Assembly (NCBI GenBank): GCA_050084515.1
Contig: CM114271.1
Span: 7,316,001 to 7,380,000 of the forward strand
Direction of reading: 5' to 3'
Source: Blasia pusilla
Lineage: Eukaryota
DNA length: 64,000 nt
Shown: positions 1 through 62,405 of the stretch, piece by piece
Position numbering within the stretch: the first letter of the stretch is position 1
Layout of the letters: every line of letters starts with the position of its first letter
Made by a program: the position numbers and the translations under genes
Notes under the pieces: model-generated
Seen by the model: the letters and a program-made list of their open reading frames with translations, nothing else
Databases searched by the model: none
What the model was told of the DNA's origin: nothing

Positions 1-1654
1 CCAAGACTACTCCATCATCATGAATATCTCGGCCACCTGTCGTCTCCTCACCGGCCTTGGGATACAAGGACTCTCCACTAGACTTCGCCATCAAAGTCTC
101 CACAGTCTGGCTCTCTATAGCCAACATGCCTAAATAGGCTGAAACGTGCCATCCTCGCACTGACTCCTCATCACTCTCTCCATGCCATCGAGCTCTAGTC
201 GCATCTCACTGACTCTGGCATGGGTTACGACTCAACCCATCTGCATCCTGGTTGAGCATCCCAAGTCTACGTACCACCTAAAAATCATACTCTTGCAACA
301 CCAAAGCCCATCTCGCAAGCTTCCTTGTAAGCTTGTCGGACTACATCAACCACTTCAGTGGTTGATAATCAGTGGTGATGGTAAAGGGGTTGCCGAATAA
401 GTAACACCTAAAATGCACGATAGCCCACACTGTAGCCAAGCACTCGCCCTCATACGAGTTGTACTTCACCTCTACAGCGTTGTTCGAGCGGCTAGCGTAA
501 GCCACCATGAACTTTCTACCCTCATCATCATGTTGGGTGAGCACTGCTCCAAGCCCCAACATGCTCCAATCTGTGAGCAACTGGAAAGGACGCCCCCTGA
601 TCGATCTCCTCAAGATGGGCGCGGACATCAACCTGTCTCTGAGCAACTGAAATGCTCGCTCGTGCTCATCCCCCTAGTGCCACTCGTGATCCACCTTGGT
701 CAGTAAGGTTAAAGGCTTCGCAATCAAACTGAATCCCTTGACGTACCGCTGATAGAAGTTTGCCAATCCCATGAATGCGCGAACACGGCTTAGATCTGTA
801 GGGCATGGAATGCGTGATATAGCCTCTACCTTTGTCTGCTGAACATCAAGGCCACCTGGGTATATTGTATGATCCAAGTACTCAATCTGGTCGTAGAAGA
901 ACTTGCACTTGCCTGGATGTAGCTTCAGCCCATGTAATTGCAATCGTCGAAATACCTCCTCTAGATGTCACTCATGCTGCTCAACCGTGGCACTAAAGAC
1001 TACGATGTCATCAATATTACACCTAGCAAAATTCAGACCATCCAAGATCTTATCCATGACCCTTTGAAATTCAGTCGGGGCATACTTTAAACCAAATGGT
1101 AAGAACGCCACCAGTACAAACAATCCTTCCTGTGAGGATCGATGCCCCAAAATGCCGTCTTCTACCTGTCATCCAATCTGATAGGTAGTTGATGGTATCT
1201 GGCTCGCAAATCCAATGAATTGAAGACCTTTGCGTGACCAATCGCATCAAAGATCTCCTCACGGGTGGGCATGGCATACCTATCGGACTTCGTCTGTCGA
1301 TTGATAGGTCGGTAATCCCCACTTATCCGTCCAATTGCCATCCACATCCTTCTTGGCGGGCATGACAATGGCAGATGCATACTCCCCATGCGACATCTCC
1401 ACTAGTTCTGCTCTGACCAAGTCTTGGCTCCTACTCTGAATCAGAGCCCTCTCCATATCACTGTACTTTTGGCGTACTTGCAAATCATCCCAAGAAGTCC
1501 AAGGGTATCTCTCCCGATCACCCCTGGTGTATCAATCTGCTCGGGTCTCGCCCCTAGCCACTGCCTCAACTATCTCGATAAGCATGGGGCTCACCAACGC
1601 AACAACTATGATGTGTCGTATCCTCAAAAGACGTTGCTCAGCTTCTCCTAAGCT

Positions 1655-2598
1655 AAAAATCCATGTCAAGCAGTTCACGTCCATTGGCTAACCCAAAACA
1701 TGACGTCGTGATGCCTTCGATAGTGACGATACTATCGTCACTCCTGTGGGGAATCCCATCTCTTGCTCTCGCTCATAGGCGTTCGGCTCCACCAACCTCT
1801 GTACCTGGTCATACCAAACCAAGCCAGGTCCGGCCTCCTTGAATGCAGAGAAAGCGGTCGAACTCACCAATGTGGGAAAGGCGGCTTGTGGCATGCTAAT
1901 CATGTTGACCATAGTCAACGGCGGTTGATCATCGTGCCTCACTCCCTATGATCAACGGCCTGGATCTAATATAGAATCTACCAACAAATCAGAGGGATGC
2001 TCCACTCTTGCGTAAGCCCTCCGCAATACCTCATGTGGTACCAAGTTGGTCCATCAAAGATGCGGGCGATGTGCTCGTGAACCCACACTCGCTGGATCTA
2101 ACAACACTACCGGGCCGATCCATGCGCGCACCTGATGTACACTCGTCACCATGCGAGACCTTGAATCGCCCAAAATTGGCACATTCTCCAAAATATATGT
2201 TGGAGAACAATATTGATGCTCATGTAAATGTCGCAAGATCCACTTCATCTCCCAAAACAACATGGATCGAGTATCAGCTAACCCGCTACTTCATCCAACA
2301 CTCGATTGGCCTTGACGCGGCCAACCAGCAATGACCAAGTCTATGGTCCCTACCCGCTCCAAGTCTTGCGCCCCCAACAGTGAAATGTCCCTTGGTAGGG
2401 AACTCTGGTAACCCTGAATGGAGACGCACACAACAAGTCGGGAAAACATAAGCGTAACTGCGCCACATGGTGAAGTGAAGCGCACCTCACAACATCATCA
2501 ATCTCCACATACAGGTACTACTGCACGCGCACTCCAGCGTGCAAAATAGTAGCTAACCCAATGTTGATCCCTCCAAAGAGATCCAACACCCGAATACC
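1655..2598 (-). pseudogene. C5 cytosine methyltransferase domain (DNMT3-like) of element A, frameshifted
   Basis: Motifs in order: IRVLDLFGGI (I), DLVIAGWPRQG (IV, catalytic Cys replaced by Arg), YILENVP (VI), LDPASVGSRAHRPHL*WTNL (VIII), EREQEMGFPTGVT..LSKASRRHVLG (IX/X). Confidence 0.9.
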
Positions 2599-5500
2599 CT
2601 TCTCTGGGATGCACCACACAATCGGGATGGTGTCCAAAGGGGTCATAGCAGCACTCTTTCCTACTTGGAGTTCCTCTAACCAATCACACTCTAGTGCAAA
2701 TGTCTCATTCCACGCTGTCTACACATGCTCAATGGCTAAGCGTCAAAGCTCCTCAGTCAAGCCCCATAGCAGCAACTCTCCTTTACGGAATGATGCGGCT
2801 ACCATAACACTCCTCTCCATATAAATGTCAGGAACGGGAGTATCCTCTGCATGGACATGTCCCTCAATCAAATCACTAGGCCAAGTGATGGCATTACTAA
2901 ATGTTGCTAAGGTCGCCATCTCTCTTGGCCGTTGCTCGATCATTGCACCTGTGAATCGAACGGGTAATGAGATAAGGTGCCCATCACCTGACTACCATCC
3001 TGGTCTGTAGGACGCTGACTCCTTCCAGTTGTCCACGAAAAACCCCATCGGGTATAACATTGCTCCACCAACCAAGACGTCGTAGGACTTTGCATCAGTC
3101 ACTATTGCCTTGGCTCGCACCACGGACTCATCTGTAGGATGTCCCGGGCGAATCCTCACCACGACCTCCTGTCGGGTGATATATTGTGTGGTACTCGCTC
3201 CACCCAAGGATATCTGTATCCGGAATGGACAGCGCTCCACATCGGCTCTCGTCAAGCCCAATCCTCTGAATGACGCTTTCCCCAACATCACGGGTTGCGC
3301 TCTTGAATCCAACAAGACGCGTTGCGGACTAAAAGCTCTACCTCCGGGACTCACCAACTCGAAGACCTCTCCTCGGTTATCCAGCAACACAACACCAAGA
3401 GAAGCCATGGCACACTCTATCGCGGGTTTAGCGGGCATCTCCGCCATCCTAGCAACCGCACCCTGACATAAATCTGAAGTGGACGGCCCAAGCATCCACT
3501 CCAAGGGCAGGTCCATCACCTCCTGTGCAATCACCTCTAGACGTGATGCAAGAACTCCAACTCCGCGCTCACATAGTGAAGCGGCCAGCCAAAAAGCCTC
3601 GGCGGGCATACCCCCCAGCGTCATAACATCGGAAGCAGAAAATAAAGAAGTTGCGATACACAAGGGTGACCATAGAACCCCAACTACTATGTGCTCGAGG
3701 CTTTTTGCCCCTCACTTTTTGGCATCAACAATAGGAGTCGCTTCACTTGTTGAGGCGGTCTTCTCCCATCGCCCTCCGTGCCTGCACACCAACAACATCA
3801 CCAACTCTCGAGGAACTTTGATGAGGACCCATCGATGGGATCCTCATCATTTCGTACAACGTGAAAGACTGAGGAAGCCTAGTCTGTTTTCTGGATTCCC
3901 CTTGTTGTGAATCCAACTCTACAATTACTCCACGGGTCACAAGTCCGGCGGCCTCCATTTGGGCTACCCCGCACATCCAACCAGGATCCTCCATATCTCT
4001 GGCTGCTCCATATGATGTTGATGCCACGGATCCGGAATCGGGTAACCTCAATGCCATAGTAGCAATCAGATATTGTAGCTGCTGTATCTGAGCAGCCATC
4101 CCATCCTCACGTCCGGCGTCTCCCTCGGCCCATCTAGGTGGTGGTACTCTACCTTCTCCACGGGCAGCTCCACCACCCTGTCGGGCAACACCAGCTCCTT
4201 ATCCCCCAACGGGACCACCTGTTGCACGATCTCTAGGCCCACCCGGACCGGCTACTCGCTCTAGTGCCCTCTATGGCCCTCGGTCCGGACGTAACTCAGG
4301 ATGTAAACTGAAATACTAGGCGCGTGTATGACCATACCTCTAACAATAGTCATACTCATAACCTCTTGGTCCAGCACCATCTCCTCCTCCATGATGAGGC
4401 ACACATCCATAATCCTGACGAGTGCAATGGGGCTGATGATGGGCTCCACCATATGACCAACAAGTAATAGTAGGCGACTGCTGCTAAGTCGCATATGAAG
4501 GTGCAGGTCTGTGTGGCACGGCCTCCGGATATCCTCCTTGAGCTCGTGGTGCCATAGTTGACCTATCTCGGAGTCCACGTTATTGCACAGGTGGTGCAAC
4601 CAATCGTGACTCCTCTTGCCCGGAACCCATGGTGGCTACGCTCTCCTCCCCCATGTTGCGCTCAATGTTCTCGGTGGTCCTAAAAACATCTCTCAATGTG
4701 GGGGAGGTGTTCATAAGAAGCACCCGCACCCGTGTCCGCAGGGTCCGGTCCAACATCGCGTACCATGACTGGATAGCCTAAGCCTTCGTCACCCTTTGAG
4801 TGACGTTGATCAACCAATGCAAGCAAGTGTAAGCCTCACGTAAACTCTCATCCAGGCGCCTCTGGAAGTCGTGGATGCTCCGCAACTTCTCCGTCCATAC
4901 TCCTTGGTAGCTGGCCCTCAACTCAACAAAGAACTCAACCACGGGGTTGAACTTAGGACAAACCCGACTAGATGGTCCAAGTGCTCCCGTGTAAGTGACC
5001 CCTCCTAAAACATCACTAGTGGAAGAGGAAGTATCCTCTCTTGACTCCTCCTCCTCATCTGGGAACGGCTCCGTCCATGACACATAGTGTGGGTCATAGT
5101 AGAGTCGCCATGCCTCAATCTCCTAGGCATATCTGTGGGAGAACTCATGGTAATCGTCCATGGGCGCCCCCTCTAAATGGTGGAACATACCGTTCCATGC
5201 TGTAAACGGGTTGAACTCTCTAGAGGTCCTGACCCGCAGGGGGTCGCACCAACTCCTAGACTCTGCTATGAAATCATGCAACTCAATCGTGCCTACTACA
5301 CCTGAAAACCTACGCGGTCTTCTATCCCGGTCATCCATCTTGTACGCCCAACTGGTAGGACCACTCACAATGTATGGCGATGTGCTCACAAACTCCTCTA
5401 CACACTCCTCCTTGTCTGACGATGACACAGAAGGAGGTTGAGGTGGTCCCTCACGTGGAGACCCTCAGAACCTCTTGCCACTCCGCGTAAAACCTCTAGA

Positions 5501-13030: not shown

Positions 13031-13074
13031 AATATCCTCCCATTTGAGACATAACATCCTTGTTATGAGAACTT

Positions 13075-13245
13075 TCAAACTCTTGCACTATTAGTGGTGC
13101 GTTGGCCAAGTTGGCTAAGGGTTCCCATGTGGCCTCAAATAGTGGATATCCTTTCTATTGGACCAAGTATTCAACTTGTTGGTAATGAGCTCCTCGAGTG
13201 CGTTTCTTCAAGATACATTCCACTTCAAATTCTTCATGATCTTCT
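13075..13245 (-). pseudogene. Chromodomain at the integrase C-terminus of element E
   Basis: EEFEVECILKKRTRGAHYQQVEYLVQ*KGYPLFEATWEPLANLANAPLIVQEFE. Confidence 0.9.
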
Positions 13246-31096: not shown

Positions 31097-31494
31097 TGAA
31101 GGGAATGGCCGTTTAGGGTTGGGAGACAGTATTGCCCTTCGAGGTTTCTTCAGTGCACGGTCTTTCTTTCTCGGTGGTGGGATTCGCTGTTGTGAGTGAC
31201 AGAATCTTCCGACTGGTCTTAGATGCATGTGCGGGAATCGAGGAAGGCAGTTTGGGAAGTGATCGAAGGTGCGCCGCTTTTTTTGGCGACGAGGAGATTA
31301 TTGTCTCTGCTGAGAATTGAAGACGGGGGAAGGGTTGAGACCCAATTCGATTCCCGACCTCGGGGTGAAGTAAAGGATGGAGTTTCAGCGGCATGGGTAT
31401 GCAGGCCGAGGCTCGACGGTGTCCTGAAGGCAGGCTTTGGTATCAAGGATGACAGTGGTGTGTTGGTAGGTGTACGGGAGAGTGGATATCAGTA

Positions 31495-41640: not shown

Positions 41641-44607
41641 CGTGTAAATGCGCATACACATCGTTACACAATATACATCATTTGTCACGAACACACACAC
41701 ACAAACACACACGATCCCATGCTAACTCATGGCATCCATACACAGAGGCGAGAAGTACCAAAATATCTCCAATAAAGTAAGATCAAATCTCTCTCTACAC
41801 CATCTCACACCATAGCTCTCAAAGGTGTGCAGTATCTCTCATGTAAAACCAATGTCATGACCATACGGATTATGTCGTAGAGTATGGTGTCTTTGGTAGA
41901 GGCCATTCCTTATGTAGGACCGTAGTGGCTTGGTAGAGATGCGGTTCCATACATAGGGTTGGGGTTACTCACTTGGGGTGACTTTCCCAGAGGGCCCGCT
42001 CTTAGGTTGGAGGATATAAGGTGGCTTGCCCTCAAAGAATAGTCAGTTCTTTGAGTTGAGCTGTGCGTTGGGAGTTAGCCTTGGTAGTGAGTAGAGCTCT
42101 TGGCTATGATGTTTCCAAGCTAAGCCGACCTAGATTCTCCCATCGTGGAGTGGGTTTGGCTCGATTGTATGTGATTGTAAACGTGTTTTATGACATGAGG
42201 TCTTTCACGGATTTCACTCAAAGAACTGGAGTAGATCGATGGTAGCTTCGATTGTAGATCAGTAGGATCTGGTTAGGGCTGATTGTGTACTCAGCCGTGG
42301 ATGTTCGTGGCTTGTGGCCTATGTTGGAGGTGTGAATCTGGTGCGCGGTTGGTTGGGAAAGAAGCGCCTTGCTGAGAGCTTTCCAATGGGCTTTAGATCG
42401 CCGGATTTCGTCAAGGGAGTTGGAAGTTATCAAGGATTGAAGATTCTGGTTCGTGTTCGACGGTTTTCTGATGTGGAGAGCTTGGAGCGCGGAAGCTGTG
42501 TTGAAGTTCATCCAGATCGGGTGAGAGGTTCCCATTGCATCTTGATACAATTGATGCATATGATGTGGCTCTTCGATGAACGAAGAGGGTAACACAACAC
42601 GTCTTCCAACCCTTGTGTTATCCACATCATGACGATACATGACATCCTTTACACCTTGATATAAATTATCCCTCAACTGTGTCGTGCGCATACACATCGT
42701 TACACAATATACATCGCTGTCACCGAACACACACACACAAACACACACGATCCCATGCTAACTCATGGCATCCATACACAGAGGCGAGAAGTACCAAAAT
42801 ATCTCCAATAAAGTAAGATCAAATCTCTCTCTACACCATCTCACACCATAGCTCTCAAAGGTGTGCAGTATCTCTCATGTAAAACCAATGTCATGACCAT
42901 ACGGATTATGTCGTAGAGTATGGTGTGCTGGTAGAGGCCATTCCTTATGTAGGACCGTAGTGGCTTGGTAGAGATGCGGTTCCATACATAGGGTTGGGGG
43001 TTACTCACTTGGGGGTGACTTTCCCAGTAGGGCCCGCTCTTAGGTTGGAGGATATAAGGTGGCTTGCCCTCAAAGAATAGTCAGTTCTTTGAGTTGAGCC
43101 TGTTGCGTTGGGAGTTAGCCTTGGTAGTGAGTAGAGCTCTTGGCTATGATGTTTCCCGCAAGCTTCGACCTAGATTCTCCCATCGTGGAGTGGGTTTGGC
43201 TCGATTGTATGTGATTGTAAACGTGTTTTATGACAGTAGGTCTTTCACGGATTTCACTCAAAGAACTGGAGTAGATCGATGGTAGCTTCGATTGTAGATC
43301 AGTAGGATCTGGTTAGGGCTGATTGTGTACTCAGCCGTGGATGTTCGTGGCTTGTGGCCTATGTTGGAGGTGTGAATCTGGTGCGCGGTTGGTTGGGAAA
43401 GAAGCGCCTTGCTGAGAGCTTTCCAATGGGCTTTAGATCGCCGGATTTCGTCAAGGGAGTTGGAAGTTATCAAGGATTGAAGATTCTGGTTCGTGTTCGA
43501 CGGTTTTCTGATGTGGAGAGCTTGGAGCGCGGAAGCTGTGTTGAAGTTCATCCAGATCGGGTGAGAGGTTCCCATTGCATCTTGATACAATTGATGCATA
43601 TGATGTGGCTCTTCGATGAACGAAGAGGGTAACACAACACGTCTTCCAACCCTTGTGTTATCCACATCATGACGATACATGACATCCTTTACACCTTGAT
43701 ATAAATTATCCTCAACGTCGTGCGATACACATCGTTACACAATATACATCATTTGTCACCGAACACACACACACAAACACACACGATCCCATGCTAACTC
43801 ATGGCATCCATACACAGAGGCGAGAAGTACCAAAATATCTCCAATAAAGTAAGATCAAATCTCTCTCTACACCATCTCACACCATAGCTCTCAAAGGTGT
43901 GCAGTATCTCTCATGTAAAACCAATGTCATGACCATACGGATTATGTCGTAGAGTATGGTGTGCTGGTAGAGGCCATTCCTTATGTAGGACCGTAGTGGC
44001 TTGGTAGAGATGCGGTTCCATACATAGGGTTGGGGGTTACTCACTTGGGGGTGACTTTCCCAGTAGGGCCCGCTCTTAGGTTGGAGGATATAAGGTGGCT
44101 TGCCCTCAAAGAATAGTCAGTTCTTTGAGTTGAGCCTGTTGCGTTGGGAGTTAGCCTTGGTAGTGAGTAGAGCTCTTGGCTATGATGTTTCCCGCAAGCT
44201 TCGACCTAGATTCTCCCATCGTGGAGTGGGTTTGGCTCGATTGTATGTGATTGTAAACGTGTTTTATGACAGTAGGTCTTTCACGGATTTCACTCAAAGA
44301 ACTGGAGTAGATCGATGGTAGCTTCGATTGTAGATCAGTAGGATCTGGTTAGGGCTGATTGTGTACTCAGCCGTGGATGTTCGTGGCTTGTGGCCTATGT
44401 TGGAGGTGTGAATCTGGTGCGCGGTTGGTTGGGAAAGAAGCGCCTTGCTGAGAGCTTTCCAATGGGCTTTAGATCGCCGGATTTCGTCAAGGGAGTTGGA
44501 AGTTATCAAGGATTGAAGATTCTGGTTCGTGTTCGACGGTTTTCTGATGTGGAGAGCTTGGAGCGCGGAAGCTGTGTTGAAGTTCATCCAGATCGGGTGA
44601 GAGGTTC
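41496..44607. repeat. Three tandem copies of a ~1036-1040 bp unit
   Basis: Units start at 41496, 42532 and 43572. Each contains a Helitron piece, the element C terminus and the first ~680 bp of element B; copies are near-identical apart from small indels. Confidence 0.95.
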
Positions 44608-47600
44608 CTGTTGCTACTCATATTGTGATCTCCTGTGAATCTATCTGCTCAAGTGTGTGGAGCGTTGCGGATTTCTGCGTGCATGAAACTTGGCGGAAGC
44701 GCTGTCGGATTTGCGATTCTGGAGGTGTATGGACAGCAAGTTTGTTTGATTTTTAGCTCGGAGTACAGAGCTCGGTTGTAGCTGATTTTTTGTGGAGAGA
44801 TAGCTATGGTGGTCAATTGATCGAAACAGATTTGATTTCGGTCACGTATTTGTGAAGTAATTTCTGATCGAAATTTCGCGGACTAGCTCAAGGTGTGGCT
44901 ATGGTGGACAGCGGATCGGAGGGGCTGGTTGGTTGGTGACTCGTTCATTTTTGGAGACGCCTATCCCGTTGGGGGCGCCCTGGTTGGACCTCTCTCCATA
45001 GCGAAGCATGGCGAGGCTTTGAGGCAACTCGTGGTAGCTCGGGGCGAGTGGGCGTGAGAGGCGGAGTAAGGAGCAAGCAAGCAAGCTTGCTTGCTTGGGC
45101 GTAAGGCAATTTTTGCAGGATTTGGGATTTGAGTTTTGCATAACTGGTCACCCATCTTTGGGCTATTTGCTGGAGGACGCTTAAGCGCCGAGTTCTTAAC
45201 TATGCCGGTGTCTGTTGTTGTAGCTCATTTGGTCTTTGTTAGGAGATGTGTTAGGCGCTTTATGCATCTCAGGTTTTTGGTTGATGTACCTCTAGCGCGC
45301 ATAGTACGGTGTAGCCTCTCCATGCGGTGATATTTTCAGGTCTTGCGCGATTCGACTAGCACGTCATCGACCCGGCGGAGTAGCTATTGCGTTAGAATTG
45401 TGTGGTGGGTTTTGTGGATTCAGAGGGCACCACGTTTGGTGGATTGTGTTACCTTGATTTCTATTTGCGATTGGAGGATTGTCGTTGGATTTCTGTGTTT
45501 GGATCCCCTCCATCGTGCTTCTTGCTTGCGCGCCCATTGTTAGGGTTGACGCTGATTTCGAGTAGTGTTACTCTGTGTGCTACCGGTAGTGAGGTGGAGG
45601 GATGACGAGTAGATTGTGGGAGACTTCTTGTGGTGATGACAAGTTAGGTTGCCTACACCCATAGCTAGTAGAGCTAGAATAGTATAGCGACATCGGCGTC
45701 ACTTGGTAATTTGGTGGTGGTGCGGCATCGGCGTTGGTCATCACGGAGTGTCAAGTGGTCGGTTGGGGACCGTGGTGCGGCGGTGGTGGTTTCACACGGA
45801 GTGGATTTAGGTATCGGCTACCTTTTCCACGCCGACGGTTGATGAAGAGGAGGGCGAGGTGTTCCAAACACCGAGTCTTCTACGTTGTTATCGAGTGTTG
45901 CATCTCCATTGATTTGGGACATGGACGGTGGATATGGGGCCATGAAGGGCCCCTGACGATACTCGGGTGCAAAGTGGGTACCATTGAGTTGGAGGACTTC
46001 ATGCAGGAGTTTGATACGTGGTGTGATATGCAGATGTTGCGTGAACGCCACGTTGTTTACACCCTTCTTGGCTTGGAAGGGTTGTTTCAAAGACTTGGAA
46101 GGACCACCCATGGATGATTACCATGAGTTTAGGAAGGACCATGTTGTTGAGATTGAGGCATGGAGACAATATTGGTCTCAGGCTATGTGTCTATCACCCA
46201 TGGTGGTATTGGTAGTAGTGCTCCTACTATGCCCGGCCCCGACGCCCGAGTGGTACGAGTCGAGCCGGAGTGGGGGTACCGGTGGAGGTACTAGTGGGGG
46301 TACTAGTGGAGGTACTAGTGCCCCACCATCGTTTAGCCCGATTTGCAGAGAGTTCTTCAAGAGGTTGAAGAAGAACTATCAAGGAGTGAAGACGGAGAAG
46401 TTGAGGAATCTTCAGGACTTTGAGCGAAAAGGCGGTGAGAGTCTTCGTGAGGCATACACGCGTATGCGACGCTTGATTTCAGTTATCCAGGGGGTGTGAC
46501 CGAGGATCAGGCGATCAGTTTTGGTATGGGATCTTGGACAAAGATTTGCGCCGTAGGGTACGTGATGCTACTCTTATGAGTGATGATTCACCCACATTGA
46601 CCCATGTGTTTGCTCTATCTCGAGAAGATTGAGCTTAACATGGTGAAGGAGAGAGTGGTGACATCCGCATTCAAAGAGGGATACAACTACTACTTTCGTG
46701 TTCACCGCCCACCTCACAATCTCGTAGTAGTGGTGGTGGTAGTAGTAGTGGGAGTCGTGGGGGTACACGCGACCTCAATCAAGTCCTAGAGGGACATTTG
46801 TGCAGAGACCATTGCCTTCATTTGCTGCCCCGGCAGCAGGGCGATCATGTTGGACATATGGAGGTGATCATGTTAGGAAGTTTTGTCCCCAAGAGGATGG
46901 GAGACGGACTGCGGAGGATAGGCCTCGGTCGGCCCCAACTCGGTGTGATCATTGCGGGAGACTAGGTCATCCTCAAGAGCGTTGCTTTGATCTTCATCCG
47001 AGTTGAGATCAGGCCGTGGCCGTGGTGGGAGTAGCTCCGAGAGGCCAAGGTGGTAAAGGTGGTAGGGGTGGTAGAGGTGGACCGGTGGTTGGAGAGCCTA
47101 CGGTGGCTACCCCTACCACTATGACAGAGTCGACTATGGTCGCTAGGGTTGAGCATTGGAGCGAAGTTGGCTACTATGGCGGTATCCAAAGATAGATCGG
47201 GTTCGGGAGCAGGGGCTTCCACCTCTTATGGAGGGGATGATCTCTCTTATATGGCGAGTGCAAAGACAAAGTTGAGGCATCAGCTGCGATTCAGAGGAGC
47301 CACTCGAGCGTCGAGCCACGTGGTGCTCTTGTGGAGTTGGACCCCTGAGAGGGGTGAGGGGGAGGCAAGGCTAGGCTTCCCCAGTCATTCTTGTTGTATG
47401 AGGTGCTTAGGACTCCATCCATGGTTCCTCGCAGCCTATTGAGCCGACAGTGGGGATCGAGGCATCTACATCGCGTGTAGTAGAGACACGGATGCAACAT
47501 CCAATGCAAAGATTGCGGATGGCAACCGGTGTTGGGATCCCCATTGTTTTCGCCACGGAGCGATGGCTTTAGGAGTTGACTTAGCTCCTGTATTTCCCGA

Positions 47601-48458
47601 TTAGCGACCACGTTGTGTGAACGTGGGGTGTATTCTTGCTACACGTGTTGAGGTGGATGAGGGTGTTGCGGTGGAGCGACCCTCTATGTCGGAGTAGCAT
47701 TGAGTACGGTGCTACTTGGCAAAGCGGCGGGCGAAGATGGATGCATTACCACCGGCCAGCCATTGATCGTGAGAGGCTTACACTGGTGTATGTATGTTGG
47801 ACAACTGGAGTGGGATCTTCCGATTGGTGAGTCCTACAGGACAGGTGTATAGACCAGATAGAGTCTTGTTAGACTCTGGTGCCCAACCTTTGATGTTGGG
47901 AAAGGCGGCATGTATTGGTTTGGGTATTCGGAGGTCAGAGCTTGAGCCTTGCCCATTCCAGATTCAAACATCACTTGGAGGAGCCAATGATAGGTCTCAA
48001 TTCATGACACGGGAGAAGTTTTCTGTACAGTTGAGACCAAATCATGCGACTGATAGCTCCCGGTTGGGAGTATCTGCGGTAGTCACATCAACTGAGTCGT
48101 ATGATGTACTAGTTGGAGGAGCAGTATTGTACCCGATGGGTTTTCAGATGGATTACTAGACCGAGACAGCGTCTTATAGACCAGGTTGGCGGTCCGGGAT
48201 GGACGTATGAGCCAAGTTCTTGTGAGATTTATTTCTGGGGCTCGACCAGGAGGGTCTTCCCCAACAGTGTTAGCATCTGTGGCTGGTTTTAGTGGAGTAG
48301 TCACTTGGCCAGGAGACTTTTTGGAGGGTAATGTTTCTGCTATGGATTCTCCTGCGCATGACGAGGAAGAGGAGGCCCCACGGCGGACTCCTACTTCTGG
48401 CCCAGTTGGGTTATCCCCTTTGGATACTACACCCATTGTATGGCAGTATTCGTCGGAC

Positions 48459-49392
48459 GGCATTTGTGTGTTAGATCTCTTTGGTGGGATTAGCACTGGT
48501 TTGGCTGTAGTGTTGCAGGCCGGTATTCCTGTGCGGAGATACGTGTATGTGGAGCGAGATGAGACGGCCCACAGAGTCTCATCCCGACATATTGGTCGAT
48601 TGATGCGGAGATATCTGAGTTGTTGCCGCCATCAGCTATTCGTGGGTACCAGCGTGCTTTACCATCACACATTGCATTGTTGGGGGCGCAGGACCTTGAG
48701 AGAATTGGTCCTGTGGATTTGGTGATTGCTGGATGGCCATGTCAGGGTCATACACGTGCTGGTGGGGGTGAGGGATTACATGACCCTAGGTCTCGATTGT
48801 TTTGGGAGATGTTACGGGTGTTACGACATCTTGAGTTCATCGAGCACGTGCTCTAGCTTACATTCGGAGAATGTTCCATTGTTGGGTGACACTCGGACCG
48901 GATGATGGCGAGTGTTCATGAGGTGCGCTCTTGGATTGGACCAGCGGTGTTGTTGGATGGAGCGCGAGTTGGCTCAGCGTGTACATAAATCCACGCTTGT
49001 GGTGGACAAACTTGTTGCCTAGGGAGGTTCTCGTCGAGCATATGATGCGATGGCGGTATCCTCGCTTCGATGGATAGTATCTTGAATCTTGGCGACTTTC
49101 CCAAGTGGTGAGGGTTATTGATCGGTCACCCATGGCGGTGGTGAACCGTGTGGGCCAGCCTAGGATGGCACTACCCACATTTGTGAGTTTTCCTCGTCAC
49201 ATGCCTACAGGAAGGTGGTCGGGGCTTGTATGGGATTCTCATGTGCGGCGAGTTGGTGGAGCCTAACGCTGATGAGAGAGCGTGCGATGGGATTTGCTCT
49301 TGGTGTGACAACGGTTGCTTCTATTTTCGAGGCTTCACGACGTCATGTGTTGGGTCAGGCCATGGACCTGAATTGTTTGACTTGGATTTTTA
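48459..49392 (+). pseudogene. DNMT3-like C5 cytosine methyltransferase domain of element B (frameshifted as assembled)
   Basis: GICVLDLFGGISTGL (I), YVYVERD (II), DLVIAGWPCQG (IV, catalytic Cys intact), GLHDPRSRLFWEMLRVL, ENVP (VI), WWTNL (VIII), ERAMGF..SRRHVLGQAMD (IX/X). Confidence 0.93.
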
Positions 49393-49973
49393 GTCTTGGT
49401 ATGGCGAGCAAAGCGTCGACTTTGGACTATGTCTGTGGGTCTTCCACCCCTTGTAATGAGCTCGATGGCTCTGGGGACGGTAGAGGCATCGGCTGAAGCG
49501 AGGAGAGTAGTATTTTGCATCCTTGGAGTAGATGGGATGTAATGGTGGGCATGTGGAGTTGGTTGCTCATCTTTGCTGGTGGATGAGTTATTTGCTCGAG
49601 ATGATGGTGTAGCTAAGGGTGTACCATCTTGTGAGGGGGTTATGAGCGACCAATGGCATCGCCCTCTCCCTCTAGTGTGCCAGTGGAGGAGACTTGGGAG
49701 CCATTACTTGGGCCCAAGCTTACGGGAGGTGAGAAACGACGCTTGACACACTTCCTACGTGCTTATAGGAGTTGTTTTGCCTTTAGCATGAAGGAGTTGG
49801 GTTCTCTGGTTGGACCTGGTATACGGATTGATTTGGCTAGTGATACGCCAATCTTCCGTCATCCCTACCGATATAGTGATATGGAGAGGGACTTGATTCA
49901 GAGTAGGACGTTGGACCTTTTGGAGGCTGGATTAGTGGAGTTGTCCCATGGAGAGTATGCATAAGCCACTGTC

Positions 49974-51107
49974 ATGCCTGCTAAAAAGGATATGCATGGC
50001 AACTACACGGATAGGCGGATGTGTGGAGATTACCGTCCTATCAATCGGCAAACCAAGGCCGATAGGTATGCCATGCCTACACCTGAGGAGATCTTTGATG
50101 TGGTGGGACAAGCAAAGATTTTCAGTACTTTGGATCTTCGGGCAGGATACCATCAATTGCTGATTCGGGAGAGTGACAAGGCCAAGACAACATTTTGGGG
50201 TGTCAACTCTCATGGCAAGGATTGTTTGTACCAGTGGAAATTCTTACCCTTTGGGTTGAAGAATGCACTGCCGAGTTTCAAGAGTGATGGATGGAGGATC
50301 CTAGCAGGGTTGGATTTTGTTCGGTGTTACATTGATGATATCTTGGTGTTCAGTAACACGGTGGAGGAGCATCAGATACATTTGCAGATGGTGTTTGAGC
50401 GGTTGAAAGCTCATGGTCTACGTTTGCATCCAGGAAAGTGTAAGTTCTTCCATGAGGATGTTGAGTACTTGGGTCATGTGATCTATCCAGGTGGTTTGGG
50501 AGTTCAGCAAGCAAAGGTGGAGGCTATTGCACTTATTCCGCGTCCGATAGATGTGAGTAGAGTTCGAGCATTCATGGGATTGGCGAACTACTATCGGAGG
50601 TATGTGAAGGGATTTAGTGCTATGGCAAAGCCTTTGAACCAATTGCTGAAATCAGATCAAAAGTGGCACTGGGGAGATGATCAGGAGAGAGCTTTTGTGG
50701 AGCTTAAGGCCCAGTTGGTGGCGGCGCCTATCTTGAGGAGACCTATCAGAGGGTGCCCATTTCAGTTACACACTGATTGGAGTAGGTTGGGACTTGGAGC
50801 GGTGTTGACACAACATGATGATGAGCACATGGAGTTTGTGGTGGCCTATGCAAGTCGTTCGAATAATGCAGCAGAGTCGCGCTATAGTTCATATGAGGGA
50901 GAGTGCTTGGCAATAGTGTGGGCTGTGGCACACTTTAGGTGTTACTTGTTTGGCACAAAATTTACCCTTGTTACTGATCACCAGCCGCTCAAGTGGTTGA
51001 TGGAGTCGGACAAGCTTACAGGGAAGCTTGCACGGTGGGCTCTTATCTTACAGGAGTATGACTTCCAGGTGGTACATAGACCTGGAGTTGCCAACCTTGA
51101 TCTTTGA
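49974..51107 (+). CDS. Reverse transcriptase + RNase H segment of element B pol
   Basis: CGDYRPIN, LDLRAGYHQL, LPFGLKNA, YIDDILVFS, TDWSRLGLGAVL, TDHQPLKWL. Confidence 0.95.
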   Translation: MPAKKDMHGNYTDRRMCGDYRPINRQTKADRYAMPTPEEIFDVVGQAKIFSTLDLRAGYHQLLIRESDKAKTTFWGVNSHGKDCLYQWKFLPFGLKNALPSFKSDGWRILAGLDFVRCYIDDILVFSNTVEEHQIHLQMVFERLKAHGLRLHPGKCKFFHEDVEYLGHVIYPGGLGVQQAKVEAIALIPRPIDVSRVRAFMGLANYYRRYVKGFSAMAKPLNQLLKSDQKWHWGDDQERAFVELKAQLVAAPILRRPIRGCPFQLHTDWSRLGLGAVLTQHDDEHMEFVVAYASRSNNAAESRYSSYEGECLAIVWAVAHFRCYLFGTKFTLVTDHQPLKWLMESDKLTGKLARWALILQEYDFQVVHRPGVANLDL

Positions 51108-52618
51108 TGGGTTGAGTAGGAACCCATGTACTAGCCAAGAGGATACAAGCGGGGCTAGATGGCATGGCGAGGTTGATGAGGAGATGGTGCCAGGTTGGCA
51201 TGCATCCGCCTTTTATGTTGGTTAGGTGGACTCTAGTATGGAGGACCACATGATATCTTACTCTAGTCGAGGGTAGATGGCCGGCCTTGAGATCCTAAGG
51301 TTGGAGATGGTGGTACGGATCACCGTGATATTCATGATGATGCGTTGGTGTTGGAGTTCCCTACGGATCAAGTAGGGTGCGGACATAGTGAGTGCCAAGG
51401 AGCGAGACCGTGTTCTTCAACGTGCTAAGAGGTATCGATTGGAGGGAACACATATTCTCCGCGTATGGGAGGATGGTAGAGTACAGTAGTGCCACATTTG
51501 ACTCGAGAGAGAGCGCATTGTGCGACATGCCCATGAGGAGTTGGGACATTTTGGGGTAAAGCGCACGTATAGCTTACTCCTTGGCGATTGGTGGCGTGGC
51601 ATGCATACTCAGGTGCAGCGATTGGTGTCACGTTGTATGGTTTGTGACCGGGTGAGGGCATCATTTAATGCCCCTACACCACAATTATACCCCTTGCCTA
51701 TTATAGGGTTGGGTTACCGTTGGAGTGTGGACTTTTTGGGACCGTTACCTTTTTGACCGACATCATCGATATGTGTTGGTGATGGTGGAGCACTTCTCCA
51801 AGTGGATTGAGTTGGTGGCATTACCGGACAAGGCAAGTGAGGAACGGCGTATGCGTTTCTGGATAGAGTGCTTAGTCATTTTGGTGCACCACCGGCTGAA
51901 GTCTTTGACCGACCACCGAGGTCTGAGTTTCAAGGTGAGTTTCAGGTCTTGTGTGACAAGGGGTTGATTGATCATCGGACCACGTCTCGAGATCATCCAG
52001 AGGCGGATGGTTTGGCTGAGCGTGTGGTTCAGACGGTGAAGAGGGCATTGCGCAAGTATGGCCTATAGAAGGGGCATCTTGGAGACTAGGATATTCAGTT
52101 GCCATGGTTAGCCATCGGGTATAGGTTGATCGCCAAGCATCCTTGGCTTCCTTCTCACCTTATTTTTGTTATCGGCCGAGATCCGGACTTGCTAGCAAAG
52201 CAATTCGTTGGGAGTCTAGTGAGGTGGTGAACCTTGATGACCCGAGAGATGTGGATGAGGGTGTGTTCTCGGGCGGAGCTCTTCGGAGAGTTATGCCAAC
52301 GGCCTTTGAGAATCTTGCCATTGCTCAACACGGGGATACGTTGCGGTATGCAACCATTGGGTGGAGGTTATCGACCATCGATTCAGAGGTTCCATGTGGG
52401 GACTATGTCTTTGGCAGCACATTGCCCGACAACGTTGGATGTGACGACAGGCCGCACTATTTTACGAGTGCGTGAGGTGTTAGCTTCTGGAGTTCTCATG
52501 TTGGAGGGTCGTGATGGAGTTGTTTGGAAGGACCATGTGCGTAATTGTGCGCCATATCATCTTCCAAATGTGGATGGTACTGTTGACCCAAGCTTAGCCA
52601 TGATACGTGCTAGCTAGC

Positions 52619-52765
52619 TTGAGGTGCATGTTGTGTGGATATGCTGGTAACGCAGCCTGTATGTTGGTGTGTGATCGGTGTTCTAGGGGTTGGCACATGA
52701 TGTGTTTGACTCCACGTTTGGATGTTGTTCCTACTGGAAGGTGGGTTTGTCCTCGATGTACTTAG
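52619..52765 (+). other. PHD finger at the pol C-terminus of element B
   Basis: LRCMLCGYAGNAACMLVCDRCSRGWHMMCLTPRLDVVPTGRWVCPRCT* (C4HC3). Put out of frame here by a 4-bp TAGC duplication; in frame with the integrase tail in element C. Confidence 0.93.
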
Positions 52766-54675
52766 GAGAGGTAGATGACTTGATCTTTGCATGATATGGA
52801 TTACAGATGTGCGACTTACGATGGGGCAACCTAGCACCCGGCCTTCTGATTTGGGCATCCAAGAAGGTGTATAGCATGTAGTAGATGTATAGGGCTACCA
52901 GGAGTTAGAGGACCTAACCGCTTGATTAGGGGGCGAGTTGTGGTACACTTGCGTTTGTGGATACTCTCGTCTATGTTATGTATGTATGTGCGTATGGTAT
53001 GTCAGCGATGTATGTTGTATGACGATGTGGATTCGCACGACAGCTGTCATGACCATACGGATTATGTCGTAGAGTATGGTGTGCTGGTAGAGGCCATTCC
53101 TTATGTAGGACCGTAGTGGCTTGGTAGAGATGCGGTTCCATATATAGGGTTGGGGGTTACTCACTTGGGGGTGACTTTCCCAGTAGGGCCCGCTCTTAGG
53201 TTGGAGGATATAAGGTGGCTTGCCCTCAAAGAACAGTCAGTTCTTTGAGTTGAGCCTGTTGCGTTGGGAGTTAGCCTTGGTAGTGAGTAGAGCTCTTGGC
53301 TATGGTGTTTCCCGCAAGCTTCGACCTAGATTCTCCCATCATGGAGTGGGTTTGGCTCGATTGTATGTGATTGTAAACGTGTTTTATGACAGTAGGTCTT
53401 TCACGGATTTCAGTTGTGGTACACTTGCGTTTGTGGATACTCTCGTCTATGTTATGTATGTATGTGCGGATGGTATGTCAGCGATGTATGTTGTATGAAG
53501 ATGTGGATTCGCACGACACCAAACCCACTCTCCTAATGAGAGGCTTGGGTTACATTCACAAGGCAAGGGACCATAGCTCCGTCGCTTCATGCCAAGAGGT
53601 TCAACAAAGAGAGAATGAGCTCTCTCCTCTCCCCTTGAGGTATACCCCTCCCCTCTCCCAAGCTCTCTCCATGGTAACCTATTCTCCCAAGTCATCTCCT
53701 TGGCTCTTGACCCGATGTAGGAGGTCAAGGGCCACTTACCAAAAATAAAAATTCGATCATATACTCAAAATGGTACTTACCTAAAATAGTAAGTTCCTCA
53801 ATATGGCTCCAAATGAGTTGAAACGAAGGGGAAACCTGCTCTCTCACATTTCCCAAGACCTTAGCAAGTCATCCTTGACCTACTGAGCCTGTCCTCCACT
53901 ACTCACGAAGGTGCTCTACTACATCTTACCGATCTATCCTAAAAGACGTGACAGTTGTCGTGCGCATACACATCGCTGTCACCGAACACACACAAAAACA
54001 CACACGATCCCATGCTCACTCATGGCATCCATACATAGAGGCGAGAAATACCAAAATATGTCCAATCGCCCCTCTAGTTGGTGGTTAGGTCACTGTAACT
54101 CCAAATAGCCATCTATCCCTACCTACCACGACATACACCTCTAGGACGCTAAGAGCAGAAAGATCAAGTGCTCATGTGGCCCCATCGTTAGTCGCCTTTC
54201 TGTCATCCATGTCACAAAAAAATTCGGAATCGAAACCTACCTAGTATCTCCTCTATGTACATCTGGGACACATCCATCGTCCCCGAGGAACCCTAGTGAG
54301 AGGTGGTGTCAGACATGCCATATGCCAACCTCTCAAACATCCATCACAGACTAGCATCCTGGCCGCACCACCAGGAGATCCACATAACATACAACGCAAA
54401 CTTGCAGGAACTACTGCTGAGCTCACATCTACTGTACCATCAATGGTAGGAAGGTGACATGGCGCATAATTATGCACATGGTCCTTCCATACCATACCAT
54501 CGCGTCCCTCCAGCAAGAGAACACCAGAGGGCAAAACGTCACGCACTCTCAGGATAGTGCGCCTTGCAGTCACATCCAACATCGTCAGTGCCGTCTGCTG
54601 CAAGTAGACATAATCTCCCTGATGAAACCTCCAGATAGTTGGTCGATAACCACCACCCCGAATAGTTGCGCGCAC

Positions 54676-56614
54676 GTCTCTAGGATGTGAGGCATACGAA
54701 AGAGGGCCTTTTCGGCGCTCGGTTTAAGTCCACTTAAGAAGATCACCTTTTTCATATGTTCATCCGTGGAAAGTGCACTCATGAGTGCACTAAACTCTTG
54801 CACATAAGCGCCAAGGGATCCGCTCTGGCGTAACCTCACAACCTCCATGCCATTGCAATACTCCTGATATTCCAGAGTGAATCGGTTCCCAATCAACTCC
54901 TTGAAATCTTCCCAACTCAACGTTTTCCCACGGCCTAGATGTTCTTTACGGTGAGCCGTCCATCAATGGAGAGCGTGATTCTTCAGAAACGTAACGTGAC
55001 CGCCACAGTTACCTTGTCTTGTTCATCTGCCTTTTGTGCTTCGAAATAAAGTTCGAGTTCCGTTAGAAACTCGCTCACTTTCCAAGGACGCCCCATTCCT
55101 GTGAATGGCGTTGGCAAATTTGTCTTACAAAGCTTCTTGTCGAAACTAGAGGCTCCATTTGACTTGAATTCCATTATCACCTTGCTGTGTTCGGCCATCT
55201 GGTTCGCCATCACCTTCATCAATCCCATCATTTGGATATAAAAGGCCGGATCGTTTGAGTTTGGAATCGAAGGTCCCGCGGAAAGATTTTCGGTTGGAAC
55301 ATCCTCATGTCTATGACTTGGCACTTTGGGAGTCGCCATTTCCACCTTTGGCTCTCGGTCCGTCATTGATTCGTCTCTTGGTTTTTTTGCTTTGACTCGC
55401 GGTTTCCTCAGTTCTTCGCCCTTGGTCGCCATTTGCAAGTCTTCCCTTTCTCAGATCTCCTCCCCGCCTCTTGTGTTCCTCCTTGGGCGTCGCGGTCTTC
55501 CGGCTACCTTGAGTTCTCCCCAAACGTCCAGATCTTCTAGGACCCCAAGCTCACGCTCATCAAGGATTAGCTCTGATACCACGTGCTGTGCGCCTACTCT
55601 CCTTGAACGTTAATCTTGTTTGTTGCGGAAGCGTGCGTTCAGTAGGTCACGCTCTCAACGCTGATCTGCATCCTAACACGTCCTCTGGTTAGTCGGGTCT
55701 TGGATCAATCAACGGGCTAACTTTTTGAGTTCTCGTCTCGGACTCTCATCAAGCTCAACCTTCCTAGTTTCGCGGTTTACAACACGGGCAAGTCTCGAAA
55801 GACTTGGGACAGACTTTCTGGTCGGTTCAGGAACCTAAAACGGCGTTTCGCGCCTGGCGATTCCAACTGTCTGATGGACATCCAATTAGTTCCTCACCAA
55901 GACTCGCACGAAGTGAATCTCGGGTTGGAATCCAAGTGTGGCGTACAAAGTCTACTCCCTTGGATCAGGTTTGGGTTTCGAGTTCCAACGCCAAACTCCC
56001 ATTCCATCACGTGCCTTTGAAACGCCGTTTGGTGCCCAAAGTGGGGATTCGTGTTCCAAGACATCTTGGAGAGATTCCTCCCTTACTAGTACTTCTGGGG
56101 ATCTCCGGGGCCCCCCTACATTTAGGGAAAGACACCCGGGCCTCTCGAATTGGCCCTCAACCCGATTGCTCTCACAATTTTTTCTGGCCAATATCTCAGC
56201 ATGTACGTATGATTTTGCTAAGATCTTTAATGAGTTGGAAGCATCTCAAGATAAGCTTTCCAACGTGCCCTTACTTGTTCCGAATGCAGCTTGGAGCTCA
56301 ACGTTATGGTCCTAAACACAGTCACATTCTCCCAAACGCTAGTCGTGTTCCAAATTGGTTCTCACCTCTTTGGCAACCAACCTCCCAAGACTCAACTCAT
56401 CTCAAGTCTTGGTTCGCGTTTGGTCTAGGTTTCCTGGTCGCGATCACTAACGCATGAAACGCACAACTCTGTTCCGCATTTCGTCTCTTAGACTTTTCCA
56501 AGAGACTTTTCCAAACGCCTCTCCAAAGCGCAAACCTCGCAGCGTGAGTTCACTTGAGTTCTGATGTTTCGCTTGGCGCCTATTTGGTGTTGTTTGGTTA
56601 TGAGGGTCGCGACA
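54676..56614 (-). mobile_element. Element D: truncated Gypsy element (5' LTR, PBS, gag)
   Basis: LTR-like 56614 (TGTCGCGACCC) to ~55584, PBS TGGTATCAGAGC at 55570-55581, retrotransposon gag (PTPFTG..FLTELELYF; SWEDFKE..LRQSGSLGAYVQEF..FLSGLKP). Fused directly to the element C integrase tail. Confidence 0.85.
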
Positions 56615-59600: not shown

Positions 59601-61019
59601 AAATAATTTCGCAAGCAGAGAAACATTCTTAGTCTAGATAAGTATAAATGTCTCTAAGCAAAATTTGTTTGCAAACTGAAAGTTTCTCTATAGGTGAATA
59701 TACTAGAAATCAAAATAACACCATCACATGATTGCACCCTATTCAAATTTGGAGAAATACAGTATTTCAAGAACCTTTTCAAACATATCTTTCGGGCAAA
59801 GAAGTTTCAGAGAGAATATTTCAAATGAGCACAGCAAGTAAAATATTTCAATTGGCTATTTTCAACAAGCACTTACATGAGAAGATCACAATGAAGTAAC
59901 TATGATTTCATCACTTCATGGGATGGCTAATTACAAGAAGATTTTCCAAAATATGATCTATTACAATTTTTTCCCATGTGGAAGGCAATAATAGTTGTGG
60001 ATATTTCCAATCACAAAACTCAGACCTTGCACTCTTTAACCTCGAGTTTTCACGGAGAGAATTGTTGACACAAATTTGGCCTAAACATTTCCCTCTCGTA
60101 GATAATCAAAAGCACTGAATTATCGCAATATGCCAAACCTTTAGAAACCTTTCATCTTTTTACCATCTTGAGGGTACCAGCAAAGTTATTATTAGAGATC
60201 TCTCACCTAACAGCTAAAATACAAATTTGAACACCAAATGATAAAGAACAAAACTTTAAGTGTACCTCAGAGACACATAAGAAAATTTAAGATGAGAATA
60301 TTCAAAGTGGAAAGGTCACCTCAAGAAAAATTTGAGTAGTTTAAAATGAACAAAAATGAGAACAAACATATGCATTTTTATTATTCTTCAAATAATCCTT
60401 CCCTCATTGTCTTCCCACTCTCAAGTTGTGTATGGCACTTTTGCTCAATTTAATGATGGGGGCCTATTTACAGTCTTTTTGTCTTTAATGTAAGTCTCTG
60501 AAAATTCTGAGACTTACATTCAGAGAATACTTCCTTGATGTGCAATCACCTATCTAACTAACACCTTTCAATTTTGGGGCAGTATGATTACGGGTATGAA
60601 TTGCATGGCTACACAAAGTATAATAATTCTCTGAAGTGGTAAAATCTTTGTGGACGACAATATTATCATTTTATCCAACATGACGCCTGAGTCTCCTCCC
60701 ATCAACTTGAAGACATAGCGTACTGACTTAACATTTCTGGAATAGATCAACTTAGTCGTGGTGTGGAAATCATGTGGGCAAATCAACGTGACACAAAAAT
60801 TCAAGAAGGATCTTTTAATCAAAGACGAGATCCAAGGTTCTCACATATTGCCCAAATCCCTCTACACTACAAGGTTGGATATGCAAAGCCACACTCTTTC
60901 TTGAAGCCAAACAAAATGGCAAGCTCTGTAACCTCACTTCAGTGGAAACACTGGTGATGTGGTTAAACCAGGTTTCTCATGTCCAAAATACCACAAAAAT
61001 GTTGTGTGGGTGAGTGGAG

Positions 61020-62397: not shown

Positions 62398-62405
62398 TTT
62401 AGAGG

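Follow-up and report, generated by a model that had tools for sequence, protein, structure and literature searches.

A 64,000-nucleotide stretch of the Blasia pusilla genome, hereafter the window (NCBI GenBank assembly GCA_050084515.1, contig CM114271.1, forward-strand positions 7,316,001 to 7,380,000), contains three related decayed elements, which we call A, B and C. B and C each carry a PHD finger downstream of an integrase tail, and A and B carry a DNA methyltransferase (DNMT) domain, PF00145, in a Gypsy coding region. Comparison with relatives indicates that the finger is a true conserved C-terminal extension of the integrase in an old Ty3/gypsy lineage of Viridiplantae. Feature coordinates are collected in Table 1. 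The Pfam scan of the window covered 140 open reading frames (ORFs) at 43–60 kb and 149 ORFs elsewhere in the 64 kb.

Three related elements in the window

The PHD finger of C is complete and in frame with an integrase tail, as a preliminary description of this DNA had proposed. The stop-to-stop ORF of C encodes 156 amino acids and ends in ...SLRCMLCGSPGGAARMLVCDGCLRGWHMACLTPPLTRVPRGRWMCPRCT*. Its last 45 residues form the C4HC3 finger (Pfam PF00628, residues 111–155), and one further codon precedes the stop at 54253–54255. The match spans the whole profile (1–47 of 47; E 1.2e-11), scoring 44.9 bits where the cut-off is 24, and the zinc ligands follow canonical C4HC3 spacing (C111, C114, C126, C129, H134, C137, C152 and C155). 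Upstream in that frame, residues 8–110 show homology to the segment located after rve in Ty3/gypsy integrases bearing rve and H2C2. Pfam found no chromodomain (PF00385) in the 156-residue ORF, and no ATG lies ahead of residue 48.

C consists of only the last ~150 codons of pol and a 3' end, joined to a foreign gag. By blastn it aligns with B at 70.6% over 54083–54669 (52919–52350 in B) and nowhere outside that span. The Pfam scan of window ORFs revealed no reverse transcriptase (RT), protease, integrase catalytic core or DNMT in C. A Retrotrans_gag match at 54588–54962 on the minus strand meets the integrase tail at about 54702–54720 in a different frame. Neither this gag nor the ORF upstream of it matches A, B or any of 80 related metagenome loci that we retrieved (given L numbers below) by tblastn at E < 1e-3, which identifies C as a PHD-family 3' end joined to a foreign gag. 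We rejected the idea that C is an internally deleted copy of the same PHD family because of this unmatched gag. The junction itself may stem from recombination, template switching or nested deletion.

B retains the complete layout of gag, DNMT, RT–RNase H, integrase and PHD, with stops and frameshifts throughout. The preliminary description had correctly located its PHD at 52619–52765. A stretch at 52610–52762 on the plus strand matches the full PF00628 profile (1–47 of 47) with E 6.2e-10 and 39.4 bits against the cut-off of 24, and all eight ligands are kept, yet the finger is out of frame with the integrase tail and a stop lies between the two. Its DNMT still shows the motifs DLFGG, GWPCQG and ENV, spread over shifted frames. 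Element A, on the minus strand from position 1 to about 7000, shares 65–73% nucleotide identity with B over the DNMT and RT; its integrase end, and any PHD, falls past the window edge.

The integrase–PHD fusion across the green lineage

The finger recurs at the integrase end in retroelements from liverworts to green algae. A word-indexed search with the 156-residue ORF among longer proteins gave 30 matches, 29 of retroelement type plus BAZ1A. PF00628 was present in 25 of the 29, usually alongside rve, H2C2, RT and RNase H, and the sources named were Marchantia polymorpha, Calypogeia fissa and Sphagnum fallax. A second word-indexed search, with a profile built from 15 diverse tails, retrieved 361 proteins at E ≤ 1e-10; the further sources were Klebsormidium nitens, Volvox reticuliferus, Pleodorina starrii and Chromochloris zofingiensis. 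HMMER over 1.84 billion representative proteins returned 391 at E ≤ 1e-30, covering tail and PHD; the looser counts, 3995 at E ≤ 1e-10 and 16083 at E ≤ 0.001, certainly take in cellular PHD proteins. No PF00385 chromodomain occurs among the matches listed from the first search and the 15-tail profile search. Many annotated M. polymorpha "hypothetical proteins" belong to this family, for example Mp_4g09160, Mp_8g17980 and MARPO_0091s0058.

Position and sequence are conserved in hundreds of relatives, so the PHD finding is not due to chance. The finger takes the place that a chromodomain holds in chromoviruses, as had been suggested: it lies C-terminal to the integrase in relatives, and in a chromovirus of the window the chromodomain follows SH3_Tf2-1. 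That chromovirus had been described as a neighbour; it exists, with a clear PF00385 match (E 2.2e-10), but lies 40 kb away and is not adjacent.

Apparently intact relatives show the finger in its full context. Locus L035 encodes ORF1 (976–5085, 1369 residues) and ORF2 (5086–8229, 1047 residues). In L030 the equivalent ORF2, also 1047 residues, contains RT, RNase H, H2C2, rve and PHD by Pfam, and L035 ORF2 matches both the RT–RNase H and the tail–PHD queries by tblastn. Single ORFs of 2034 residues in L041 and 3609 residues in L049 both combine RT, RNase H, DNMT, H2C2, rve and PHD, the DNMT match of L049 falling under the Pfam cut-off (19.6 bits versus 22). B and the intact ORFs of L030, L041, L049, L060 and L067 all share the Ty3/gypsy domain order, with RT and RNase H followed by the H2C2 and DDE core of the integrase. 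Some of these frames are very long, up to 3609 residues, with the DNMT between RNase H and integrase (L041:699–6800, L049:55–10881, L060:5903–11620 and L067:2–4729). L060 also has a G-patch domain ahead of the integrase, and several chlorophyte-type ORFs run hundreds of residues beyond the PHD.

The PHD finger is under purifying selection in this family. Across alignments of 17 and 27 rows, conservation is complete or at least 90% at all eight zinc ligands and also at G132, W133, P140, P146 and W150. For ligand counts and substitution rates we used 33 copies with one stop-free match across tail and finger; 27 of them keep all eight ligands, the exceptions being L001, L012, L021, L029, L070 and L072. 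After removal of pairs with dS ≤ 0.1 or saturation, median pairwise dN/dS (Nei-Gojobori, NG86) was 0.26 for the PHD (171 of 528 pairs) and 0.19 for the barrel of the integrase tail (124 pairs), versus 0.69 for the linker between them (186 pairs).

A DNMT3-like enzyme encoded with the finger

DNMT and PHD usually occur in the same element. Using the read-through DNMT of A, the RT–RNase H of B and the tail–PHD of C as tblastn queries against the 80 loci, all of which are PHD-family loci, we assessed the 34 with more than 4.5 kb upstream; the other 46 are too short upstream to judge. A DNMT lies upstream of the PHD on the same strand and within 5 kb in 30 of the 34, a co-occurrence that the preliminary description had suggested testing. 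It precedes RT in 23 loci and follows it in four (L041, L049, L050 and L060), and RT is absent from L001, L005 and L007, which are internal deletions. Only L014, L028, L057 and L070 lack the DNMT. The enzyme is DNMT3-like: all 29 PDB matches of the DNMT from a close intact relative are DNMT3A, 3B or 3C. Pfam detected no reader domain besides the PHD in the scanned ORFs. The preliminary description had spoken of a reader and a writer in one element, which holds for B and for these relatives but not for C; without a DNMT or an integrase core, C is itself no such pair.

The family divides into two clades that differ in where the DNMT sits. An unrooted RT–RNase H tree of 40 rows (quick IQ-TREE, SH-aLRT support) splits into two halves with support of 100 each. 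One contains B and every row with a known DNMT before RT. The other contains all 14 rows with a DNMT after RNase H, plus six rows nested among them that keep the PHD and have no DNMT between RNase H and integrase. An unrooted integrase–PHD tree of 44 rows places C with Marchantia, Calypogeia and Sphagnum (support 95); three K. nitens proteins fall in the same first clade, with 86% identity to relative P0074 and 79% to P0096, and Volvox, Pleodorina and Chromochloris fall in the second. These groupings indicate a streptophyte clade (Klebsormidium, liverworts and mosses), to which the window copies belong, and a chlorophyte clade. Both clades have the PHD, and members without the DNMT still keep the finger. 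Since the trees are unrooted, one DNMT capture followed by a move looks the same in them as two captures. Among 43 database proteins spanning RNase H to PHD, the DNMT lies between RNase H and integrase in 13 and not in 30; those 30 start near RT, so that a DNMT upstream of RT can mostly not be judged in them.

A conserved stop codon separates DNMT from PHD in the streptophyte clade. In L035 and L030 a single in-frame TAG (L035:5083–5085, L030:4661–4663) divides ORF1, encoding gag, protease and DNMT, from ORF2, encoding RT, RNase H, integrase and PHD, and the stop contexts in this pair are TAG CAG TTA and TAG CAA TCA. We examined 20 liverwort-type loci, chosen as close DNMT-bearing relatives. 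In 18 of them (for instance L017:7338) a stop occupies one homologous position, ..KVFA*QPMA.., as TAG in 12 and TAA in six, and CAA CCC follows it in 15 of the 18; L001 and L007 have no match to this pattern. The homologous position in B (49644–49652) reads GAG CGA CCA. UAG-CAR-YYA is a leaky stop context of plant viruses. The ORF1/ORF2 stop resembles this context and looks like programmed read-through.

If it is, the DNMT would reside mainly in the abundant ORF1 product, and the PHD only at the end of a rarer read-through product, beside the integrase. For the streptophyte clade at least, such an arrangement would point to a PHD that works with the integrase more than to one that works with the methyltransferase. 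Because of this stop, direct coupling of reader and writer is unproven there, and the two domains form no obvious physical unit. In chlorophyte-clade elements one ORF runs uninterrupted from the DNMT through the integrase to the PHD.

A finger resembling readers of unmodified H3

The PHD resembles fingers that read the N-terminal tail of histone H3. Its best 60 of 92 PDB sequence matches comprise KMT2C/D, CHD4/5, KDM5A/B/D, Lid, PHF12, KAT6A/B, DPF2/3, ATXR5, BHC80, WSTF, AIRE, BAZ2A/B, UHRF1/2, ORC1b, EHD3, Cph1/2 and Rco1; no ING, BPTF or TAF3 finger is among those 60. M123, D127, G132, an aromatic residue at 133 (W/Y/F), P140, P146 and W150 are conserved as in the unmodified-H3-reader group. 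Aromatic-cage PHD fingers have a tryptophan two residues ahead of the zinc histidine. C has a glycine at that place, and its loop 115–125 contains no aromatic residue.

Modelling points the same way. An AF2 model of the C ORF, from a 15-row alignment, places a small barrel of five strands ahead of a linker and the PHD, with a mean pLDDT of 66 overall and 78–87 in the finger. In VIA comparisons against representative structures the best matches of the finger were the H3-bound PHD of ATXR5 (Z 9.7; root-mean-square deviation (rmsd) 1.1 Å over 51 residues) and, at Z 8.0, the BAH-PHD of ORC1b in complex with unmodified H3; UHRF1, Lid and CHD4 fingers also matched. Foldseek placed it at 0.5–1.3 Å rmsd from DPF2/3, MOZ, BAZ2A/B and BHC80, and at 2.1 Å from KDM5B PHD1. 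Its top rows were Tudor-PHD cassettes (PHF1, UHRF1) at 12–15 Å rmsd, which makes the two-domain arrangement uninformative. The barrel (residues 28–95) matched Tudor, KOW and SH3-like barrels at Z about 6–7 and the integrase C-terminal domain of prototype foamy virus (PFV) at Z 5.7 (rmsd 5.3 Å over 70 residues); these middling scores indicate the common small-barrel arrangement alone.

By sequence and modelled fold, then, the finger sits among PHDs whose solved representatives recognise an H3 N-terminus unmodified at K4, and our best guess for the family's ligand is an H3 tail without K4 trimethylation. One feature varies within the family. Acidic residues before the first strand of unmodified-H3 readers hold K4 and R2. 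Distant relatives have acidic loops here (PDDEDRMLLCD, MDEEDKMLLCD), like GNDEDRLLLCD of KDM5B PHD1. The loop of the window sub-lineage is non-acidic, SPGGAARMLVCD or similar, with SPGGAAR in C and YAGNAAC in B. The preliminary assignment to the H3-tail-reading type agrees with the sequence and fold neighbours, but the acidic loop residues common to distant relatives and KDM5B PHD1 have been lost in the window lineage.

Proposed role and alternatives

We lean, with modest confidence, towards a role for the PHD as a chromatin tether for integration, comparable to the chromodomain of chromoviruses. In active elements the finger would stay on the integrase through the beta-barrel and short linker and tether the integration complex to nucleosomes via the H3 N-terminal tail, the mode of action of the chromovirus chromodomain. 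A likely target of H3 without K4 trimethylation would bias insertion away from active promoters. The sequences themselves show the domain, where it sits, its conservation under selection, its co-occurrence with the DNMT and its likeness to readers of unmodified H3; that it binds histones, what exactly it recognises and how it would influence integration are inferred.

Several points weigh against this tether. The acidic residues that unmodified-H3 readers carry before the first strand are not present in the window copies, and the ligand of this sub-lineage may therefore differ from H3K4me0. The overall confidence of the AF2 model is moderate. The pairs behind the dN/dS medians are non-independent, and the 80 loci derive from a small number of related metagenome sets, so that copies may share hosts. 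A, B and C do sit in a repeat-rich stretch, and three decayed copies say nothing on targeting.

The finger could instead serve the element's DNMT3-like enzyme. Cellular DNMT3 has a PHD-like zinc module, ADD, which reads unmethylated H3K4 and adjoins and regulates the catalytic domain. The PHD might take the place of ADD: at nucleosomes whose H3K4 is unmethylated, it would direct or license the de novo methylation of a fresh insertion or of the DNA around it. Element and enzyme would then form an integrate-and-mark module, in which the PHD does for the DNMT what ADD does for DNMT3. The new copy and its neighbourhood would be methylated at the time and place of integration. In chlorophyte elements DNMT, integrase and PHD would be one mature protein; in streptophyte elements DNMT and PHD would meet in a read-through polyprotein or in the particle. 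The high co-occurrence of DNMT and PHD speaks for such a module, as do the DNMT directly ahead of the integrase in 13 of the 43 RNase H-to-PHD proteins, the uniform DNMT3 matches, the lack of any other reader domain by Pfam in the scanned ORFs and the contiguous chlorophyte ORF. We nevertheless regard it as unlikely, though a live alternative. Streptophyte elements divide DNMT and PHD by the conserved stop (18 of 20 copies; L030, L035) and place RT, RNase H and integrase between them, the six chlorophyte relatives without a DNMT between RNase H and integrase keep the finger, and a short linker joins it to the integrase barrel. If it did operate, the module would be a transposon-encoded de novo heterochromatin system persisting into land plants.

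Nor must the partner be a histone. Some PHD fingers have non-histone partners, and this one might bind a host chromatin or replication protein as a tether, bind nucleic acid, or bind another part of the intasome, serving assembly, nuclear entry or stability and not the reading of a mark. The loss in the window sub-lineage of the acidic loop found in its relatives and in KDM5B PHD1 would fit such a partner. Nearly all of the nearest solved fingers, whether compared by sequence or by fold, bind the H3 tail, and the seven conserved positions from M123 to W150 follow the H3-tail group; we hold a non-histone partner to be improbable.

Whatever the finger does in active relatives, B and C themselves are very probably dead relics without present function, the ORF of C being open by chance; this is compatible with a tether in the family. 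RT, protease, integrase core and DNMT are all missing from C, whose ORF has no early ATG and is joined to a foreign gag that lies in another frame, and B is broken by stops and frameshifts all along. The near-identity of the 368-nucleotide repeats of B (98.9%) runs the other way, implying a recent rearrangement or copying of B or of its array. For the window itself the picture is ordinary: two dead PHD copies.

Other features of the window

Table 1. Features of elements A, B and C and of the chromovirus, in window coordinates.
Feature	Position	Strand	Basis
PHD finger (C4HC3) of C	54259..54393	-	PF00628; modelled fold
ORF of C, integrase tail and PHD	54253..54723	-	stop-to-stop translation
Integrase C-terminal tail of C (residues 8–110): small beta-barrel, then poorly conserved linker of ~18 residues	54394..54702	-	homology; AF2
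3' untranslated stretch of C, alignable with B 52766–52919	54083..54252	-	blastn
Ty3/gypsy-type gag fragment beside C, unrelated to the PHD family	54720..55450	-	PF03732 E 2.5e-6; no tblastn match
PHD finger of B	52625..52759	+	PF00628; out of frame with B integrase tail
Integrase C-terminal tail of B, ends in stop	52351..52614	+	frame translations; blastn to C
Integrase H2C2 zinc domain and rve core fragments of B	51502..51964	+	PF17921 E 4.8e-13; PF00665 E 0.0049
RT and RNase H of B	49965..51104	+	PF00078 E 8.1e-25; PF17917 E 3.7e-37
DNMT3-like cytosine methyltransferase region of B, frameshifted	48415..49393	+	PF00145 E 1.5e-7 on ORF 48563–48853; similarity to A
gag of B	45957..46496	+	PF03732 E 0.0016, under Pfam cut-off
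368-nt direct repeat of B, 5' copy	43925..44292	+	blastn; 3' copy 53045–53412, 98.9% identical
3' terminal repeat block of B	52936..53518	+	short repeat 52936–53042, 368-nt repeat 53045–53412, short repeat 53412–53518 (98%)
DNMT3-like domain of A	1625..2631	-	PF00145 E 5e-7; five in-frame stops, one frameshift; catalytic PCQ reads PRQ
RT and RNase H of A	133..1465	-	Pfam; 73% nucleotide identity to B
Chromodomain of unrelated chromovirus (12600–17311)	13071..13229	-	PF00385 E 2.2e-10, downstream of SH3_Tf2-1

The termini of B look unusual. Its 368-nucleotide direct repeats lie 9.1 kb apart, and a 107-nucleotide repeat stands on both sides of the 3' copy. L061 (10626–11195) and L062 (10588–11135) have 3' ends with the same short-long-short layout, and their long repeat again recurs at the 5' end. 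These terminal repeats do not look like a plain pair of long terminal repeats (LTRs) and recall the "DIRS-like" repeats of KnitGypsy-Dnmt3. By blastn, no consistent order and orientation of the short repeats emerged for A and C. Three tandem units of 1036 bp (41493–44614, 97.5–98.4% identical) include the 5' repeat of B and run into B. Weak Helitron_like_N matches occur on the minus strand of these units, one at 30.3 bits (cut-off 28.9) and the others under the cut-off. We considered whether the units are Helitron debris unrelated to B and rejected this in part, since the array includes the B repeat.

CpG depletion is uninformative as a trace of self-methylation: the CpG observed/expected ratio of 0.65–0.74 in A, B and C falls inside the 0.50–0.92 spanned by the rest of the window. 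G+C is about 30% in blocks at 8000–12000 and 36000–38000, versus about 50% in the retroelements; ORFs of at least 72 residues in the first block have no Pfam match, and the second has no ORF of that size. The tail of the decayed chromovirus (12600–13830, minus strand) has two SH3_Tf2-1 matches, an internal duplication, before its chromodomain. An intact 408-residue ORF with a protein kinase domain (31453–32676, plus strand; PF07714, E 1.5e-55) is probably a host gene among the repeats. At about 59500–62400, a repeated unit and a (CT)n-like run (SLSLSL...) appear in the read-through translations, and none of the six frames has a Pfam match.

Relation to known systems

The family shares with cellular DNMT3 a PHD-like zinc module encoded together with a DNMT3-type catalytic domain. 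Unlike ADD, the module here is a single plain finger at the far end of pol, on the integrase, and in the streptophyte clade it is in a separate ORF from the enzyme.

A close published counterpart is KnitGypsy-Dnmt3, described in PMC5890265 (de Mendoza et al. 2018) as a K. nitens Gypsy element with a DNMT3 domain and DIRS-like repeats. Both have an intronless DNMT3-type domain in a Gypsy coding region and what look like unusual, non-LTR-like terminal repeats. K. nitens proteins joining integrase and PHD share a clade with the window copies; the published elements themselves are likened here by description. The main text and one supplement of that paper make no mention of a PHD, though one may appear in its figures or PDF supplements. 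PMC5890265 places the acquisition in the K. nitens lineage, in contrast to the family here, which occurs in liverworts and mosses. The window copies are dead members of a family that is probably best treated as a bryophyte branch of this streptophyte Gypsy-DNMT3 lineage.

As an accessory domain of green-lineage LTR retrotransposons, the PHD finger has precedents in green algae. PMC6673714 cites Kapitonov and Jurka 2003 and Perez-Alegre 2005 (REM1) for the PHD as a retrotransposon accessory domain, PMC8557442 calls it "a common accessory domain" in Chlamydomonas (C. reinhardtii) transposons, and a legend in PMC9940879 lists it among the domains of Gypsy-7a_cRei. Compared by description, our chlorophyte clade of Volvox, Pleodorina and Chromochloris may overlap with these elements. 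Unlike the present family, the relevant passages mention neither a DNMT together with the PHD nor land-plant hosts.

The idea of a reader and a writer in one element is already in print for other domains. EpiLTRs (bioRxiv 10.64898/2026.05.21.726589), reported from Cymbomonas and Euglena, combine a chromodomain with a DAM adenine methyltransferase and a DNMT4-related DNMT. As there, one LTR retrotransposon unites DNA methyltransferase with a histone-reader domain; here, by contrast, these are a DNMT3-like enzyme and a PHD, in streptophytes and chlorophytes.

Retrotransposons with their own cytosine methyltransferase were previously reported from dinoflagellates and Klebsormidium, and the relatives found here extend the family to liverworts and mosses. 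A 2019 opinion (PMC6338049) describes methylase-encoding transposons as absent from land plants "such as tracheophytes". By term search, the main text of the plant LTR classification behind REXdb (PMC6317226) contains none of PHD, methyltransferase, Marchantia and Klebsormidium. In the open-access literature searched we found no bryophyte element combining PHD and DNMT, and the link between an integrase–PHD fusion and a DNMT is not discussed in that text. The placement of the DNMT at two positions in sister clades that share the PHD amounts to a natural experiment on module assembly. The family is also testable in Marchantia, for which chromatin-modification studies exist, among them PMC10952607.

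Chromoviruses offer a close parallel to the proposed tether. The integrase of these Ty3/gypsy elements ends in a chromodomain (Gao et al. 2008, via PMC6673714), and one such element stands in the window. In both groups a domain of histone-reader type follows the C-terminal barrel of the integrase. The reader here is a PHD, unlike the chromodomain of chromoviruses, and PF00385 is missing among the relatives listed. If the fingers of active relatives do bind H3, these elements would constitute a second, independent kind of chromatin-reader integrase beside the chromoviruses.

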